Of a DNA stretch of 64,000 nt, positions 539-64,000 are shown piece after piece. The DNA comes from Gammaproteobacteria bacterium. GTDB lineage: Bacteria; Pseudomonadota; Gammaproteobacteria; GCA-001735895. Position 1 is the first letter of the stretch. Each line of letters opens with the position of its first letter. Both the position numbers and the translations under genes were made by a program. The notes beneath the pieces were generated by a model that was not told where the DNA came from, did not search any database, and was given only the letters and a program-made list of their open reading frames with translations. Location: assembly GCA_050291745.1 (NCBI GenBank), contig JBNKKI010000092.1:13103-77102 (forward strand), written 5' to 3'.

Positions 539-773
539 CCTGGATTCCGCAGTTGACCGCTCGCAATAGAAGTTAACCTACTGTTTCATAAACCATTACA
601 GTTGATATGTATAATCACCCAATAGGTGAATCCCGCTACGAACTGAATTGCACGTTTGAGGCATCGTATCTCTTCGTTGTAACTCCTTGGAATAGCTGGC
701 TATTCCGCGTCGCTACGCCTTGATCTACACCACCTCAAACGCACAATCAGCTCGTCCAACTGCGGATTCTAGG
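539..773 (+). repeat. MITE-like repeat, copy A (long subtype, about 235 bp) with terminal inverted repeats and a central hairpin
   Basis: Left end CCTGGATTCCGCAGTTGACCG, right end CGTCCAACTGCGGATTCTAGG (inverted); internal hairpin GGAATAGCtggCTATTCC; near-identical to 51678..51913 and inverted relative to 9466..9677 and 36181..36381. Confidence 0.85.
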
Positions 774-3015: not shown

Positions 3016-4263
3016 TTAATTGAATTCCTGAGTACAGGACATATAGGCTTCCATAAGTTGAGTAGGATCCTGCATTAATCTGTCTTTCCAGATTCCCAGC
3101 TTTAAACGTGTTTCAATGAGACCTCTCAAAATGCCAATATGCTGTGTTAATCCTGTACAACTAGCACCGATAAGAATATCGTCTTCAAATTGCAGGTTTA
3201 AATATCGATAATCCTGTTCATTAAAAATTTCTACTGAATCACCACCATCAATGCCCATCCAGCTTCCAAAGGAACAGGAAATAAGCCCCAGTGTATCGAG
3301 GACATTCATATTGAGTGATCCTTGGTGATTTACTTTTTTTCCACACATATTCAGAGCTGCGATTCTACCATGATCGGTTGCTGTAGGCTGGATAGCCTGT
3401 ACCTCATGATCTCCTGAAGAAAAATCAAGTGCCTGAGCGACATCACCGGCTGCATAAATATTGGGGTTACTGCTTTGCAGGTATTGATTCACCAGAATTC
3501 CTTTATCAATTTGTATTTCGGTATTTTCGAGGAAATCAGTATTTGACATAACACCTGTTGCTGTTATCACAAGATCGGCTGGTAATAATTGACCATCAGA
3601 TAATTTGACTGAATATGAACCATTGCTATCTTTGATTATAGAGTCGATTTTACTGGAAGTCTTGACATTGATACCTTTATCTATACACCAGGATTTTATC
3701 AGGCCACCCGCTTTGTCATTGAGCATCCGGGGAACCATGCGATTGCCTGCTTCAACAACGGTTAAATTAATGCCACGTTTTAGTAATGACTCAAGGATAA
3801 TACAACCGATAAAACCTGCACCAATTAAAACGACATTAGAGCCAGGTTGAGCTAGTTGAATAATGTCACGAGCATCCTGTAGTGTCCAGCAACTGTGGAC
3901 TATATCCAGTTCAATACCTGGTATAGGTGGTGTATAAGGTTTCGAACCAGTTGAAATTAATAATTTATCGTAATGTATGTTATTAGTACTTTGCAAAATA
4001 ACCAACTGTGCTGTTGTATCGATACTGGTTACAGTATCCTGGATAATATTGATGTTTAAAGCGGCAAAATGTGTAGATGGATCACGTATATAAGTGCCTG
4101 CCTGTTCGATTTTTCCCTCCAGGAAATAGGGAATTGCCATTCGAGAATAGGGAGGCTCAGGCTCACTGCCAATGATGGTGATTTCAGCATCCTGATTATT
4201 CTTTCTGAGTGTTTCAGCTGCGATTACACCGGCTGTACCGGCACCGATTATGAGGAAATGCAT
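3016..4263 (-). CDS. FAD-dependent pyridine-nucleotide-disulfide oxidoreductase family protein (AorC-like NAD(P)H-binding subunit)
   Basis: Two Rossmann motifs (IIGAGTAGV near the N-terminus; VLIGAGFIGC mid-protein); immediately downstream of AOR. Confidence 0.8.
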   Translation of the reverse strand: MHFLIIGAGTAGVIAAETLRKNNQDAEITIIGSEPEPPYSRMAIPYFLEGKIEQAGTYIRDPSTHFAALNINIIQDTVTSIDTTAQLVILQSTNNIHYDKLLISTGSKPYTPPIPGIELDIVHSCWTLQDARDIIQLAQPGSNVVLIGAGFIGCIILESLLKRGINLTVVEAGNRMVPRMLNDKAGGLIKSWCIDKGINVKTSSKIDSIIKDSNGSYSVKLSDGQLLPADLVITATGVMSNTDFLENTEIQIDKGILVNQYLQSSNPNIYAAGDVAQALDFSSGDHEVQAIQPTATDHGRIAALNMCGKKVNHQGSLNMNVLDTLGLISCSFGSWMGIDGGDSVEIFNEQDYRYLNLQFEDDILIGASCTGLTQHIGILRGLIETRLKLGIWKDRLMQDPTQLMEAYMSCTQEFN

Positions 4264-4338: not shown

Positions 4339-6189
4339 TTAAAGAGACAGGCGCTGTTTGGTCTCCTGAGTTATCTCACCTTTATCCGTCCATCCTCTAA
4401 TTTCATAATAATGAGGTAGCATTTCACCTAAACGATTAACCTGTCCTTCAGTTGGTCCACTTTTAATGGCTTCTTCCAGAAGTCTCTTTGGTAACTTGTC
4501 ATCATCTGATGTAAAACCGGCTTTATTATTAAATTGCCGTTCCAGATTCCAAACTCGCTCACCAACCTCAAGACATTTTTCAACGCTCCAGTCACCAGCG
4601 CAAGCACCATCAATTTGTGGTGCAATATTATCCATTCCCCAGGCAAAAGTGGTGAAAAGGCAGATTCCAGCAGAATCAACAAGTGCAGTCGCATCCTGAA
4701 AAGCTTTTACCAGTTCAGGCTTACCATCGGTATCTGTCTGTTCGGTTTTTACAGGAATGCCAAGAATTTCTGAGGCAATGGTATAACCCCGAACATGGCA
4801 GGCTCCACGGTTGGAAGTGGCATAGTTTAGACCTATTCCCTGTATCCCTCGAGGGTCGTAAGCCGGAAATTCCTGTCCCTTCACATGCATTGCTAATTCC
4901 GGGTGACCATATTTTTCACAAAGTCTTTTTGAGCCTAGAGCCAGATCTTTACCAAAGCCTTTTCCACTTACCAGTGCTTCAACCGCTGCCACAAAAGCTT
5001 TTGCTGAACCAAATTTTAATTCTATTCCGCCAGTATTTTCTAAAGTTAGAATACCATCTTCAAACATTTCCATTGCTGCAGCAAGAGTACAGCCAAAAGT
5101 AATAGGGTCAAAGCCATCTTCATTACATAGAAAATTGGCATAAGTTAATGCATCCAGATCATCTACGCCCGTATCAGCACCGAGCGCCCAGGCTGCTTCA
5201 TACTCAAGACCACCAGATGCACCCCAGTATTCAGGTTTATTTTCAACTGAGAAATGTCCTTTATCAATAGTCGATATACGACCACAGGCAATAGTGCATC
5301 CAAAGCAACCGGCATTCGTGGTTAGATTGGCTTTACCATCACTAGCACGAAGTTCATGCATTGCTTCTCCGGAAATATTTCCCGCACCTTCGAATCCAAC
5401 ATCTTTCATGTTTCGTGCAGGTAGACCACCGACTCCATTAATAACATTCATCAATACCTGTGTGCCATAAGCAGGTAAACCTTCTCCAGTAACCGCATTT
5501 TCTGCGAGTACGGCTTTGCCGGCATTTACAGCTTCAATAAATTTTGGCATGTCATCAATGTTACCAACTCCCAAAGTGCCTCTTACTGCAACAGCTTTAA
5601 GATTTTTGGATGCCATCACTGTACCAACACCAGAGCGACCTGCAGCTCGATGTTTATCGTTGATTACGGCTGAATAAAGACAACCGGCTTCAGCTGTTCT
5701 ACCAACACAGGCTATACGAATTTGGGGGTCCTGATGAATTTTATGCAGGATATCATCCGTCTCCCAGGCTGATTTACCCCAGAGAGTTTTAGCAGAGCGA
5801 AGTTCTGCTTTATCATTTTCTATCCATAGATAGACAGGTTTTTCTGATTTACCTTCAAAAATAAGCATATCCCATCCGGCATTTTTAAATTCAGCTCCCA
5901 GAAAACCTCCAGAGTTTGAACAGGCGATAGCGCCAGTTAGTGGGCCTTTAGTGATAACTGAGTAACGACCGGCGGTTGAAGCCATGGTTCCAGTCAAAGG
6001 TCCCGTCGCCATGATTAATTTATTATCAGGGCCTAGTGGGTCGCAGGTTGGATCAACTTCTTCACTCAGATATTTAGAAGCAAGACCTCGCTGACCAAGG
6101 TATTCATCAGCCCATTGCATATTTAAGGGCTCAGCTGTACAGGTTCCTTCAGTGAGGTTTACGCGTAATATTTTTCTTGTCCAGGACAT
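4339..6189 (-). CDS. aor: tungsten/molybdenum-pterin aldehyde:ferredoxin oxidoreductase (AOR family)
   Basis: 616 aa; N-terminal MSWTRKILRVNLTEG... and cysteine-containing stretches as in AOR; flanked by a polyferredoxin and MoaD/MoeB-like genes. Confidence 0.85.
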   Translation of the reverse strand: MSWTRKILRVNLTEGTCTAEPLNMQWADEYLGQRGLASKYLSEEVDPTCDPLGPDNKLIMATGPLTGTMASTAGRYSVITKGPLTGAIACSNSGGFLGAEFKNAGWDMLIFEGKSEKPVYLWIENDKAELRSAKTLWGKSAWETDDILHKIHQDPQIRIACVGRTAEAGCLYSAVINDKHRAAGRSGVGTVMASKNLKAVAVRGTLGVGNIDDMPKFIEAVNAGKAVLAENAVTGEGLPAYGTQVLMNVINGVGGLPARNMKDVGFEGAGNISGEAMHELRASDGKANLTTNAGCFGCTIACGRISTIDKGHFSVENKPEYWGASGGLEYEAAWALGADTGVDDLDALTYANFLCNEDGFDPITFGCTLAAAMEMFEDGILTLENTGGIELKFGSAKAFVAAVEALVSGKGFGKDLALGSKRLCEKYGHPELAMHVKGQEFPAYDPRGIQGIGLNYATSNRGACHVRGYTIASEILGIPVKTEQTDTDGKPELVKAFQDATALVDSAGICLFTTFAWGMDNIAPQIDGACAGDWSVEKCLEVGERVWNLERQFNNKAGFTSDDDKLPKRLLEEAIKSGPTEGQVNRLGEMLPHYYEIRGWTDKGEITQETKQRLSL

Positions 6190-6205
6190 TTTTTATCTCC
6201 TCAAT

Positions 6206-6691
6206 TCAAGATGCAGCTGTTTCAGCGGCAGGTAAACTTTTAGAAGCTGAAGCTAGCATACGATTATATCCAGTCCAGTCTGAATCGATATAAGTGATGG
6301 CTGCAGTAGGGCAGGCTTTTGCACAGGCAGGGTCTCCACCACAGAGATCACATTTCACGACTTTACCCGTTGCCTGGGAATAATTGATTGTTCCAAAAGG
6401 ACAGGCGATGGTGCAGACTTTACATCCAACACATTTATCATCAGACACTACTTTGGCACCGGTTGATACGTCTAAACTAATGGCATTGACAGGACAGGCG
6501 CGTTGACACCAGGCTTCATCACATTGTGTACAGGTATAAGGGGCAAATCTGCCTTCATGATGGAAGGTAAAAACTTTAATAAATGATCGAGAGGGATTGA
6601 ATAAACCGGTATGTTCATAAGAACAGGCCAATTCACATTGAAGGCATCCGGTACATTTCACCGGATCAATATGTAAAGATTTTTGCATCAT
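6206..6691 (-). CDS. 4x[4Fe-4S] polyferredoxin, electron-transfer subunit (AorA-like)
   Basis: Four CxxCxxCxxxCP clusters in 161 aa; first gene of the operon. Confidence 0.85.
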   Translation of the reverse strand: MMQKSLHIDPVKCTGCLQCELACSYEHTGLFNPSRSFIKVFTFHHEGRFAPYTCTQCDEAWCQRACPVNAISLDVSTGAKVVSDDKCVGCKVCTIACPFGTINYSQATGKVVKCDLCGGDPACAKACPTAAITYIDSDWTGYNRMLASASKSLPAAETAAS

Positions 6692-7014
6692 CTTCTCCTG
6701 GCTTTGGATTATAATTGTATTGTTTTTTGATTTTACATAAATATCGCCTTATATGTTAATAAAAATATTCTATAAATGGTTTTTTATAGTTATAAAATAC
6801 TACTAAATAAGGGGTTTATACTTTGTCTGGCGTCTTAAAATGACTGCTGATAGAGGAAATATAACTGATATATTTTCAAACTGAATATTACTGCCAGTTT
6901 TAAACATGAGTTAGATAAAAATTTCGTTATCGATTGTTCTTCTATAAAATGCCTGATTTTTTTTACAAATGTGAATTCCTGATGTTACACAAAGTTCAAT
7001 TATATCAATAGACT

Positions 7015-9465: not shown

Positions 9466-9677
9466 CCTGGAATTCGCAGTTGGACGAGTTGATTGTGCGT
9501 TTGAGGTAGTGTAGATCTAGGCGTTACAACGAAGAGATACGCCGCCTCACACTTGCAATTCAGTTCGTAGCAGTATGCACCGATTGGGCGATTTTTCCAG
9601 GATTATACACACCAACTGTCATGGTTTATGAAACAGTGGGTTAACCGCTATTGCGAGCGGTCAACTGCGGAATCCAG
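9466..9677 (-). repeat. MITE-like repeat, copy B (short subtype, about 212 bp; central hairpin deleted, about 11 nt insertion)
   Basis: CCTGGAATTCGCAGTTGGACGAG...CGAGCGGTCAACTGCGGAATCCAG; inverted orientation relative to copy A. Confidence 0.85.
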
Positions 9678-10208
9678 ATTCATGTAGAGTTTCTCCGCGC
9701 CTGAGTAATACAACTCGTTACATTTTATTCAACAATGACGATTATTTCGAAACTCTCAGACGTAAAATATTTACACAGCATTACGTGCATAGTATGAACC
9801 GTCTGCAAGTTGAAAAAAATCGGAATTTAGATACGACAGTAAAAACTGATATTGAGAAACAAACGCTTAAAAAATATTCATCTTATCTTTCTAGGTTGAA
9901 ACACCGAAGCGAATTAAACGGTTTCTGGAGCTTGATAAGTAATCTATTACAAATTTAAGATATGGAAAATTGTATTAATCTTTGCAATATACTGATATTA
10001 ATGTATTTTAACTTTGAGGAACCCTTGATTAATGCCGGATCCAGAGAGTAGTGTGATGAAATGTTTCTGGACGCGACTAAAAGTGCAGGTAAATGCCAGT
10101 TATTACAAAACTTTTCAAGGTGGAATTGAAATTTTTGACCACTATTCACCTGTTCGCGTATTAATGAGAGATTCCACTATTAACACTTAATTTAAGAGTA
10201 CAGTTTCT

Positions 10209-36080: not shown

Positions 36081-36180
36081 TTATTTCAGCAGCGATTAAA
36101 AAGTTTGCGATTGTACACCTTCAACGGCTGTAATGCAGTATTGCCTGCCTGGATTATCTGCATCGATATAAAGAAGTCAT

Positions 36181-36381
36181 CCTGGAATGCGCAGTTGGAC
36201 GAGTTGATTGTGCGTTTGAGGTAGGTAGATCAAGGCGTTACAACGAAGAGATATGCCGCTTCAAACCTGCAATTCAATTCGTAGCAGGATGCACCGATTG
36301 GGTGATTATAAATATCAACTGTCATGGTCTATGAAACAGTGGCTTAACCTCTATTGCGAGCGGTCAACTACGGAATCCTGG
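36181..36381 (-). repeat. MITE-like repeat, copy C (short subtype, about 201 bp)
   Basis: CCTGGAATGCGCAGTTGGACGAG...CGAGCGGTCAACTACGGAATCCTGG; lacks the central hairpin seen in copies A and D. Confidence 0.85.
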
Positions 36382-36413
36382 GGCATGCAAAATGAGATGA
36401 AATTTATGCAGGT

Positions 36414-36446
36414 AAAAAAAACGACGGTCAAGACCGTCGTTTTTTA
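36414..36446. terminator. bidirectional Rho-independent terminator (after the rhodanese gene on - ; abuts MITE copy C)
   Basis: AAAAAAA-ACGACGGTcaagACCGTCGT-TTTTT: 8 bp GC-rich stem flanked by A and T runs. Confidence 0.8.
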
Positions 36447-40910: not shown

Positions 40911-43205
40911 ATGGGAAAGGGACTTATGCTTAAAACTGGGATCGTTGTCTTAATTGCTACAGTGGTAGCCTGTTATTCTCCATATCTCATCGATCGTTTC
41001 TGGGTATCGTTTCTTCCAGTAAGTCTATTTATTTCTTTAGTAAATCCGCGAATAAGATTGACTGGTTTGTTCATGAGTTGTTTTCTATGGACTACTGCAG
41101 TTATTTACTGGCAGCTAGATCATCGTCTTAATTCGGACATGAATAATAAAAGAGTTGTTGCTGTTGGGGAAGTTATAAATATCCCTAAAACCTCACCTAC
41201 ATCAACTAATTTTCTGTTTAAGCCTGTTTCTATTGAAGGATATAATAGTCACTATCCACAAAAAATCAGGCTTAACTGGAGAAATGCACCTGAAACTTTA
41301 AAGCCTGGTCAGTTTTGGCAATTACAGATAAAACTAAAACAACCACATGGGTTTCAAAATCCTGGTGGTTTCGATTATGAACGATGGATGTTTGTCCGTG
41401 GAATCCAGGCAAGGGGCTATGTGCTGGATTCAGAGTTGAATGAATTACAGAAAACGACTTGGTTTTCACTCAATTCTCTACGTAATCATTTAAAAAAGCA
41501 TATTGAAAAGTCCTGTCTGGGCTGTAATCACATAGGCTTGATAGAAGCGTTAGCGATTGGTTTCAGGGGCGATATTTCTATGCAAACCAGAAATTTATTG
41601 AGTCAGACTGGAACTGCTCATTTAATAGCTGTATCAGGTTTACATATAGGTATTGTATCAACCGCTTTCTACTATATGGGATTATTGCTCTGGTCTAAAT
41701 TATTATATGCAGGAAGATTAAAGAGAAAGGAAATCGCATTACTGCTGGCCTGGTTTGGTGGTTTAAGTTATAGCCTGCTATCAGGCTTTGATTTACCAGC
41801 TCAGCGCGCCATGATTATGTTGACTGTTGTTCTATTCAGTCTTTATGTCAGATCTCCATTTAACCTGTTAAATAGCATTGCAAGTGCGCTTGTGATCGTT
41901 CTTCTTATTTTTCCTCTTGCGGTTTTATCGGAATCATTCTGGCTGACATTCAGCGCATTGATGATTATTTCTTTTGGTAGTTTTTTACTGCAATTGCAAA
42001 CTTCCCGTTTAAAACAACTGGTGATTATCCAGATTTTATTTTCAGTGCTTTTTATTCCTTTAAGCGTTTATATATTTGGTCAGATTCATGTTGCCAGTAT
42101 GGCCGCTAATTTAATAGCTGTTCCATTTATTAGTTTTATCATAGTGCCATTTAATTTTGTTTTGCTGTTATTTTTCTGGTTACCTGATCAATTGTTACAG
42201 CTTATGTATCGTTTTTTGGACAATATGTTAAATGTATTGATCCAATATCTTGAATGGTTACAGGATAATGGTTTAGCTGCCATCCAAGTTGCTGATATTG
42301 AGGGCTGGAAGCTTATCCTGTTATTAATATTGACTGTATTACTGCTAATGCCCAGAGGATTTGTTTCCAGGGCAGTGATTTTATTTTTGTTACCACCAGT
42401 GTTTTTGTGGAATCTGCATCCATTATCAGCTGCACAGTTTAAAATGACCGTTCTGGATGTGGGCATGGGAACTTCAGTGGTTATTCAAACACATAACCAT
42501 AGTTTGATCTACGATTTCGGACCAGGTAATAGACAGGGTTTTAGTCTAGGCAAATGGGTAGTATTACCCTATATGTTTTCGGAAGGTATTGATGCACCAG
42601 ACCGAATCGTGCTTAGTCATGCTGACCAGGATCATTCCGGTGGCTTTTATGCGGTGCAGGAAAGCTATCAGAATATTCCAGTTTTTTCGGGCACCCCTTT
42701 TGAGGTAAAGCGAAGTTTCCCTAATTTGAAATATATTCGAAATTGTCATGACACAATGAGCTGGATGTGGGATGGTGTTAAATTTGAATTTATCGGTAAT
42801 CAACCAGTACAGTCATCTAAAAATAATCGCTCATGTGTATTAAAAATTTCAATCAATAACAAAAGTGTTTTACTGGCGGGAGATATTGAACACGAAAGGG
42901 AAAGTCAGCTGGTTAAGGAAACTAAGAATAATCTCAGATCTACGTTTCTCGTGGTACCTCACCATGGTAGCGATAGATCATCCTCGAAAGAATTTATTGC
43001 TTCAGTCAGTGCTCATTACATATTGTTTACGACAGGATATTTAAATATGTGGCATTTTCCACGACAGGAAATTGTACAGAGATATAAAAAAACAGGTGCA
43101 AACACTCTGCAAACAGATAAAACTGGAGCTATTCAGATCATTTGTTCTTCAGATAAATGTGAAATAGAAAAATTTCGTAGCAAGCATCCGCGAGTATGGT
43201 ACTGA
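40911..43205 (+). CDS. comEC: DNA internalization-related competence protein ComEC/Rec2 (with C-terminal metallo-beta-lactamase domain)
   Basis: 764 aa, N-terminal DUF4131-like TMs, competence core (AHLIAVSGLHIG), C-terminal MBL HxHxDH (LSHADQDHSGG). Confidence 0.9.
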   Translation: MGKGLMLKTGIVVLIATVVACYSPYLIDRFWVSFLPVSLFISLVNPRIRLTGLFMSCFLWTTAVIYWQLDHRLNSDMNNKRVVAVGEVINIPKTSPTSTNFLFKPVSIEGYNSHYPQKIRLNWRNAPETLKPGQFWQLQIKLKQPHGFQNPGGFDYERWMFVRGIQARGYVLDSELNELQKTTWFSLNSLRNHLKKHIEKSCLGCNHIGLIEALAIGFRGDISMQTRNLLSQTGTAHLIAVSGLHIGIVSTAFYYMGLLLWSKLLYAGRLKRKEIALLLAWFGGLSYSLLSGFDLPAQRAMIMLTVVLFSLYVRSPFNLLNSIASALVIVLLIFPLAVLSESFWLTFSALMIISFGSFLLQLQTSRLKQLVIIQILFSVLFIPLSVYIFGQIHVASMAANLIAVPFISFIIVPFNFVLLLFFWLPDQLLQLMYRFLDNMLNVLIQYLEWLQDNGLAAIQVADIEGWKLILLLILTVLLLMPRGFVSRAVILFLLPPVFLWNLHPLSAAQFKMTVLDVGMGTSVVIQTHNHSLIYDFGPGNRQGFSLGKWVVLPYMFSEGIDAPDRIVLSHADQDHSGGFYAVQESYQNIPVFSGTPFEVKRSFPNLKYIRNCHDTMSWMWDGVKFEFIGNQPVQSSKNNRSCVLKISINNKSVLLAGDIEHERESQLVKETKNNLRSTFLVVPHHGSDRSSSKEFIASVSAHYILFTTGYLNMWHFPRQEIVQRYKKTGANTLQTDKTGAIQIICSSDKCEIEKFRSKHPRVWY

Positions 43206-51677: not shown

Positions 51678-51913
51678 CCTGGATTCTGCAGTTGACCGCT
51701 CGCAATAGAGGTTAACCCACTGTTTCATAAACCATGACAGTTGATGTGTATAATTACCCAATCGGTGAATCCCGCTACGAACTGAATTGCAGGTTTGAGG
51801 CGGTGTATCTCTTCGTTGTAACGCCCAGGAATAGCAATCTATTCCGCGTCGTTGCGCCTTGATCTCCACCACCTCAAACGCTCACTTCAATTCGTCCAAC
51901 TGCGGATTCTAGG
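51678..51913 (+). repeat. MITE-like repeat, copy D (long subtype, about 236 bp, about 90% identical to copy A)
   Basis: CCTGGATTCTGCAGTTGACCG...CGTCCAACTGCGGATTCTAGG; central hairpin GGAATAGcaatCTATTCC. Confidence 0.85.
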
Positions 51914-63912: not shown

Positions 63913-64000
63913 TTAAACAAACCCCTGATTAACTAGAATACATCGGGGGGCTCATTGCTTTAACCTGGAATCTGCATATTCCGGCGAATCCGATCACCCA

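Follow-up and report, generated by a model that had tools for sequence, protein, structure and literature searches.

The spacer between the rhodanese gene and mfd spans 412 nt in the window, i.e., in the whole 64-kb stretch of DNA that was analysed, and harbours a 201 bp copy of a repeat on the plus strand (copy C, positions 36181-36381). Copy C shows the ends CCTGG...CCTGG and can be divided into a left arm (36181-36235), a middle segment (36237-36303) and a right arm (36304-36381), all given for the plus strand. It is flanked by the pentamers GTCAT (left, 36176-36180) and GGCAT (right, 36382-36386), which agree in 4/5 positions and represent a decayed 5-bp target duplication. Relatives with an 85-87% identical rhodanese keep the gene order lolC-rhodanese-mfd, and their rhodanese-mfd spacers measure 118-271 nt in contrast to the 412 nt of the window. 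For three relatives with the same gene order, the repeat is absent from this spacer, with the spacers being too diverged to define an exact empty site.

The same spacer shows further features. A strong hairpin past the rhodanese gene is flanked by an A-run and a T-run and resembles a bidirectional terminator, and a GTGTACAAT motif upstream of mfd resembles an extended -10 (36414-36445 and about 36105-36125). Both are conserved in the repeat-free relatives, and copy C is located between them such that neither is disturbed. In one relative (L040, ~3225-3390; the same in L041), the rhodanese-mfd spacer contains a different element of ~170 bp, which is bounded by inverted ends of its own (TTCACCGCGAAGGCACGAAGAGCACGAAG ... 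CTTCGTGGTCTTAGTGTCTTCGTGGTGAA). This spacer seems to take up small mobile elements repeatedly.

Altogether, four copies of the repeat were found in the window, ranging from 201 to 236 bp. Beside copy C, these are copy A (539-773, minus strand, 235 bp), copy B (9466-9678, plus strand, 213 bp) and copy D (51678-51913, minus strand, 236 bp), with A and D being of a long and B and C of a short form. This confirms the initial annotation, which had described a four-copy repeat with A and D oriented opposite to B and C. An 18-mer and a 20-mer taken from the repeat each match these four sites only (shuffles expect 0.00-0.02), and a profile search revealed no fifth copy in the window. The GC content of the repeat is 0.46-0.48 compared to 0.38 for the window. 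Independent of the repeat, the Rfam scan at gathering thresholds reported zero RNA families across the 64 kb, tRNA included.

The copies differ in the state of their flanks. Copy A is enclosed by ATCAT on both sides, i.e., by a perfect 5-bp duplication, and thus looks like a recent insertion. For copy D, the flanks read ATCAT and ATCTT, and the target duplication of copy B is decayed (3/5 match) like that of copy C. Copies B and C have substitutions in common that are without counterpart in A or D (GGTAG, GCAG..ATGCACC, and TGTCATGG), and both may be old descendants of one short progenitor.

Termini, target sites and the candidate mobiliser

The repeat is bounded by terminal inverted repeats of ~20 bp (CCTAGAATCCGCAGTTGGACG... 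/ ...CGGTCAACTGCGGAATCTAGG) and starts with CCTAG and terminates with CTAGG, while some ends read CCTGG or CCAGG. The end motifs were located at all copies. Within alignment A2, 96% of the cells of the 16 terminal pairs are paired across 17 full copies.

We also compared the pentamers that flank the individual copies. They match perfectly for 7/19 full copies and show an average match of 3.9/5 (permutation p = 0.00035), while the next 5 nt outward match at just 1.1/5. The pentamers follow a strong AT-rich consensus W-T-M-A-W, which raises the background match to 3.2/5. Pentamers that deviate from the consensus nevertheless agree within a copy, i.e., ATCAT/ATCAT (copy A), TTCAT/TTCAT and TTTAA/TTTAA. 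It may also be that a single ancient insertion was followed by conversion among the copies.

Simple copies measure 201-285 bp, copies with module arrays reach up to 572 bp, and one interrupted copy extends over 1007 bp. A coding role is ruled out by stop codons in every reading frame (at least three per frame in the consensus); the only long frame that arises from the repeat lies downstream of the hairpin discussed below and is uninformative on the hairpin state. None of the 19 full copies lies within a gene, all being intergenic, and of the 36 neighbouring gene ends 26 are 3' ends.

With regard to distribution, the repeat occurs on at least 17 contigs of the gammaproteobacterial MAG H1.bin.24 among the matches listed, where one genome per species was scanned, and also, among the same matches, in a second MAG, C1.bin.13. 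Many MAG contigs terminate within the repeat. Metagenome contigs provided 13 loci, 8 of which are genuine and carry more diverged copies. The metagenome loci L023, L025, L028, L031 and L032 were discarded as chance matches inside unrelated genes. No copy was found on viral contigs. Given its termini, target duplications and lack of coding capacity, the repeat is a MITE, i.e., a small non-coding mobile element of an uncultured gammaproteobacterium, and as such reflects ordinary mobile-element biology.

The repeat shows hallmarks of the IS1380 type, namely CC-initial ends (CCTAG...CTAGG) and 5-bp duplications. Members of the IS1380 family generate target duplications of 4-5 bp (PMC12116815), and for ISEcp1 5-bp duplications, AT-rich targets and the left repeat ACGTAGAATCTAGG are reported (PMC12116815; PMC2887853). 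A search for IS1380 in plasmids returned almost exclusively ISEcp1. In plasmid pC15-1a (NC_005327), the ends of ISEcp1 read CCTAGATTCTACGT...ACGTGGAATTTAGG and are preceded by TCATA. The ends of the repeat (CCTAGATTCC / CCTAGAATCC) are identical to those of ISEcp1, the sole IS1380 member compared, in their first 9-10 bases.

An IS1380-type mobiliser is thus supported by the first 9-10 terminal bases as well as by the 5-bp AT-rich duplications, which both agree with ISEcp1. The similarity of the termini can be read directly from the two sequences, and from it we infer the transposase family; nine terminal bases in common with one IS are suggestive, not proof. Most likely, a transposase of the IS1380-family type would recognise the ~20-bp terminal inverted repeats and duplicate a 5-bp AT-rich target (W-T-M-A-W). 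The repeat and ISEcp1 have in common the CC-initial ends, the first 9-10 bases (CCTAGATTC-) and the 5-bp duplications in AT-rich targets. On the other hand, ISEcp1 is 1.66 kb long, encodes a transposase of 420 aa and has 14-bp inverted repeats, while the repeat is non-coding, only 0.2 kb long and has inverted repeats of ~20 bp.

We searched the window and the loci L001-L033 for end motifs 150-4000 bp apart, which revealed neither an autonomous element nor a transposase bounded by matching ends; matching pairs at a distance of 1-4 kb are absent from both. Two extra 'ends', at position 5369 of L006 and at position 41409 of the window, lie within ordinary sequence and were rejected as chance matches. 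Just past the der gene, at the border of the window (63959-64000), TTTAA is followed by CCTGGAATCTGCATATTCCGGCGAATCCGATCACCCA, i.e., a terminus-like sequence starts at 63964 and runs off the window. Its first 13 bases match the repeat terminus and a target-like pentamer precedes it, while the remainder differs. Possibly, the autonomous partner ends here, or the sequence belongs to a second family that is served by the same transposase. Our literature search provided no title or abstract that describes a MITE of the IS1380 family, and the repeat plausibly represents a MITE whose ends are of the IS1380/ISEcp1 type.

The hairpin module and the origin of short copies

Long and short forms are distinguished by one discrete central module, which is present in A and D and missing in B and C, as had been proposed. 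Its size was given as roughly 30 bp and is corrected here to 33 bp. On the minus strand, the module covers 685-717 in copy A and 51824-51856 in copy D (33 nt each) and includes a hairpin at 689-706 and 51828-51845, respectively. On the element strand, the hairpins read GGAATAG-CCAG-CTATTCC (A) and GGAATAG-ATTG-CTATTCC (D), which corresponds to GGAATAG-CTGG-CTATTCC and GGAATAG-CAAT-CTATTCC on the plus strand of the window. That is, the hairpin noted before exists and has a 7-bp stem and a 4-nt loop, while its former notation 'GGAATAGC-tggc-CTATTCC' counts one base twice. The pattern GGAATAG-NNNN-CTATTCC occurs 2 times in the window with 0.01 expected, and across the ~390 kb examined, i.e., the window and 41 loci, no hairpin of this kind lies outside the repeat. 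In MAG copies, the CTAG of both termini (CCTAG/CTAGG) is also present precisely in the middle of the hairpin, and the hairpin then forms a perfect 18-bp palindrome GGAATAGCTAGCTATTCC (e.g., L003 6381-6398).

Copies B and C lack exactly the 33 nt, and their sequence reads GATC(T/A)AGGCGTTACAACGAAGAG. In copy C, the junction GATCAAGGCGTTACAACG at 36228-36245 (plus strand) marks the site of the missing module, and the break falls inside the GGCG that is common to both direct repeats of the long copies. The respective junction of copy B is GATCTAGGCGTTACAACG (9514-9531, plus strand). Copy B alone carries in addition the insertion of about 11 nt that had been described for it, which is the 11 nt GATTTTTCCAG at 9590-9600 (plus strand); in related copies, this is the site of a ~97-nt module (M100).

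The position of the module becomes clear from the fold of the element. Copy A reaches -101 kcal/mol (z = -7.0), and its fold is formed by a stem of ~30 bp (left arm with middle segment), followed by a GTAAC/GTTAC helix and the GGAATAG/CTATTCC hairpin at the tip. RNAalifold on nine hairpin-bearing copies provided the same architecture unguided, in agreement with the single-copy folds. When the structure of copy A is imposed on 23 copies, 91.9% of the cells pair, compared to 35-38% when the partner columns are slid. In copy C, the long internal stem is formed by 36199-36231 (5' arm) pairing with 36250-36282 (3' arm), both on the plus strand. Thus, the ~30-bp internal stem can be extended at its apex by the 33-nt module, which is optional.

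In long copies, the module is enclosed by a left (CAAGGCGTAACGACG) and a right direct repeat (CAAGGAGTTACAACG), which are identical in 12/15 positions with the first 5 (CAAGG) matching perfectly (consensus CAAGG(C/A)GT(A/T)AC(G/A)ACG). Short copies retain one hybrid direct repeat. Its sequence depends on the lineage, i.e., the junctions read AAGGAGTT in the MAG and AAGGCGTT in L029 as well as in copies B and C of the window, while one MAG copy shows AAGGGGTT. The junctions agree with the local long form, and that of the window is the one expected from a D-like long copy.

To relate short and long copies, the apical region was excluded and the nearest copy was determined for each plain short copy of MAG H1.bin.24 (three in total). 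The nearest long copies show 2 (L020-L003), 4 (L013-L015) and 5 differences (L007-L010), while the short copies of this MAG differ from each other at 5-11 positions. Since each plain short MAG copy is nearest to a long copy, the loss of the module is recurrent. Hairpin-less copies are present in every lineage, and the hairpin is carried by all of the most diverged copies (L030 group, L008, L024). The indel positions are non-random, i.e., across the lineages examined it is always one and the same block of 33 nt that is either there or missing.

Could the two forms represent two separate subfamilies, each spread from its own master copy, such that the module difference traces back to one old inherited event? 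The substitutions common to copies B and C would fit, as both could descend from one short progenitor. Within MAG H1.bin.24, however, short and long copies have haplotypes in common and all four combinations of hairpin state and informative sites are present, the junction sequences vary between lineages, and the 47-nt module introduced below is scattered in the same way. We therefore regard two subfamilies as very unlikely. Sequence comparison instead points to two states of one modular element and not two lineages. The simplest reading is an ancestral long form from which the module was lost precisely several times, where we infer the direction of change from the distribution of the forms. 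If copies exchanged sequence by gene conversion, the scattered pattern would look the same as after recurrent deletion.

Alternatively, the module itself might be a very small mobile element, which inserted into the loop of a short progenitor and thereby duplicated CAAGG. The perfect 5-bp CAAGG on both sides of the module has the length of the element's own target duplication, as expected for this scenario. But the similarity of the flanks covers 12/15 bases and thus exceeds a 5-bp duplication, the module ends are unlike the termini of the element, the hairpin is absent outside the repeat in the window and the 41 loci, and the deepest-branching copies already carry the module. Furthermore, repeated identical insertions are less likely than repeated deletions, which leaves a nested insertion as the least probable of the explanations considered.

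Returning to recurrent loss, the short form would arise repeatedly from an ancestral long form by precise removal of the module between its imperfect direct repeats. The most likely route would be replication slippage between these repeats, with the hairpin bringing them together. Both forms keep the termini and would stay mobilisable. Taken together, we assign a probability of roughly 0.7 to the reading of the repeat as a non-autonomous DNA transposon (MITE) that is likely moved by an IS1380-family-type mobiliser and whose short form results from repeated module loss.

The hairpin module is not the only optional part. Related copies carry optional blocks at fixed internal sites, which results in sizes between 201 and 572 bp from simple copies to arrays. 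A 47-nt unit (GGCTTCCGCGTCCTGCTCACGCCCCTTACCTATGTCCCTATAGGCAA) is found between GTTACAA and CGAAGAG with 0, 1, 3 or 6 head-to-tail copies (L007 5799-6068; L008 6444-6587; L012 3037-3083; L014 5500-5546; L015 4502-4548), and its excision gives back the standard repeat sequence exactly. A second unit of ~97 nt (M100; TTTTCAGCATGGATGCTG...GCATAGGAGCG) is present in 0-2 tandem copies (L008 6191-6384; L015 6453-6546; L007 6131-6164; L014 53-87), and the 11-nt insertion of copy B at the same site may be a remnant of it. Neither of the two units occurs outside the repeat in the ~390 kb examined. Three metagenome copies show in addition a block of ~24 nt that is located 5' of the hairpin. In related genomes, the optional modules at the two other fixed sites behave like the hairpin module.

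The 1007-bp copy is broken by a piece of an IS256-type transposase gene (L007 ~6165-6705; Pfam Transposase_mut, E = 8e-9). The junction motif TGGACCCACTCC of this insertion recurs in a truncated copy on an unrelated metagenome contig (L024 ~205-215), and another IS may target or abut these repeats.

Conservation of the hairpin and possible selection

Slippage alone does not account for one property of the module, namely that its hairpin stem varies as little as the termini do. In a set of 15 hairpin-bearing copies (~7 lineages), 0/14 stem columns vary, compared to 4/4 loop columns and 51/119 (43%) of the others, which corroborates the observation of a conserved stem with a variable loop made on the window copies. 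The loop shows eight variants and a nucleotide diversity of 0.46 against 0.10. Given the background rate, 14 invariant columns are expected with a probability of roughly p = 4e-4. For comparison, 4/18 columns vary in the left terminal repeat, i.e., the hairpin stem is at least as conserved.

The initial annotation had interpreted this pattern as selection for structure and named a covariation test of the hairpin as a check. The test returned nothing, with 8/8 pairs never varying: an invariant stem yields no covariation, so that structure is inseparable from sequence constraint or shared ancestry. That is, no selection for structure is demonstrable in the hairpin itself, while covariation is observed in the helices beneath it. 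These two helices show five covarying pairs and 16 one-sided changes (e.g., G-C to G-U), where the compensatory changes include A-U/C-G/U-A at columns 40-142 and A-U/G-C at columns 85-119.

The wobble pairs of the fold are distributed asymmetrically. In the consensus of the terminal and long stems, 7/7 wobble pairs are G.U on one strand with no A.C (two-sided p ~0.016; alignment A2, columns 18-53 with 129-163 and 256). The G.U-bearing strand folds ~17 kcal/mol better in 16/17 copies. Both the G.U bias and the better fold hint at selection on one single strand. This strand-biased folding coexists with an unbiased orientation relative to the neighbouring genes (13 same, 13 opposite).

Given these observations, the hairpin could be a selected structural or recognition module, acting as RNA, as single-stranded DNA or as a palindromic protein site, such that the long and short forms differ in function. 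As a protein site, it might serve the transposase or a host factor internally, with effects on, e.g., mobility, transcript stability or regulation. The invariant stem with its varying loop across 15 copies, the compensatory changes in the helices underneath, the strand-specific G.U pairs and the energy difference between the strands all fit this idea, as does the motif GCGGAAT, which the hairpin has in common with the right terminus. On the other hand, the 7-mer is not significant (p about 0.08), and the structure of the hairpin is not demonstrated with its 8/8 pairs never varying. The module is furthermore dispensable and was lost repeatedly, and the short copies L013 and L007 show perfect target duplications. 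Beside the balanced gene orientation, the consensus scans revealed no promoter-like or terminator-like site within the element, and Rfam provided no family at gathering thresholds for the whole window and none even at E <= 1 around copy A. On balance, we consider a selected module unlikely, although it carries more weight than the other alternatives to the main reading.

Two related ideas were set aside. A terminator or promoter function of the element is unsupported by the consensus scans, and the interpretation of the hairpin as a pair of pseudo-termini, which is based on the 7-mer with p about 0.08, serves as a lead only.

A more specific variant combines these elements, i.e., one strand would be selected to fold as RNA or ssDNA into the long G.U stem, GGAATAG-N4-CTATTCC would provide an optional recognition module, and the two forms would interconvert. 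We rate it as improbable, and more so than a selected module in general. If it were true, long and short forms would be functionally distinct states that interconvert via a built-in deletion switch. The recognition module would then be, e.g., an internal site of the transposase or of a host protein that is related to the terminal GCGGAAT motif.

Relation to known repeat families

The classification of the repeat as a MITE explains a conspicuous repeat of an uncultured, low-GC gammaproteobacterial lineage, the same repeat that breaks related MAG assemblies. It provides a defined family for annotation, with its termini, its preferred target and three optional modules, which occupy fixed sites. 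The short copies represent a clean natural case of the repeated precise loss of a hairpin between direct repeats. The current understanding of bacterial repeats is left unchanged.

The modular insertions and deletions had been likened to the subtypes of Correia elements (CREE) from Neisseria. As an analogy this is fair, since both show long and short forms; a membership is not given, since ends and duplication differ. Correia elements are characterised by ends of 26 bp (TATAGCGGATTAACAAAAATCAGGAC), by a TA duplication and by an IHF site. In contrast, the repeat has CCTAG ends (CCTAGAATCCGCAG), a 5-bp duplication and no sequence similarity to them. In common are a short intergenic MITE character, long and short classes, and long stem-loops when transcribed. 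The size classes of Correia elements extend from ~104 to 157 bp (PMC3184786), and their transcripts are cleaved by RNase III (PMC10969869).

The ERIC or IRU sequences of Enterobacteriaceae are likewise intergenic imperfect palindromes with MITE features. Larger ERIC variants, reportedly described by Wilson and Sharp in 2006, are said to result from insertions at specific internal sites. When located at gene 3' ends, ERIC can alter transcript stability (PMC10969869). ERIC differs from the repeat by a TA motif at both termini, by the other host clade and by the absence of sequence similarity.

The closest functional analogue is the BOX element of Streptococcus pneumoniae (boxA-boxB(n)-boxC). It is also a modular MITE-like repeat with terminal inverted repeats and target duplications, and its optional modules can be absent, single or in tandem, are largely self-folding and keep the overall stem-loop. 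Slipped-strand mispairing or unequal recombination is considered the cause of the size variation of BOX, and boxB folds independently of the stem formed by boxA and boxC (PMC3049150). The repeat parallels this with its hairpin module and with its two further units, of which the 47-nt one is present in 0-6 and the 97-nt one in 0-2 copies. Unlike the BOX modules, the hairpin module never exceeds one copy and is located at the apex of the long stem. Furthermore, BOX has a streptococcal host and ISSpn2-like termini and no sequence similarity to the repeat, which is gammaproteobacterial and has IS1380/ISEcp1-like termini. Among these systems, the repeat is best placed as a MITE family that is new and has ends similar to those of IS1380/ISEcp1, i.e., as a known kind of element.
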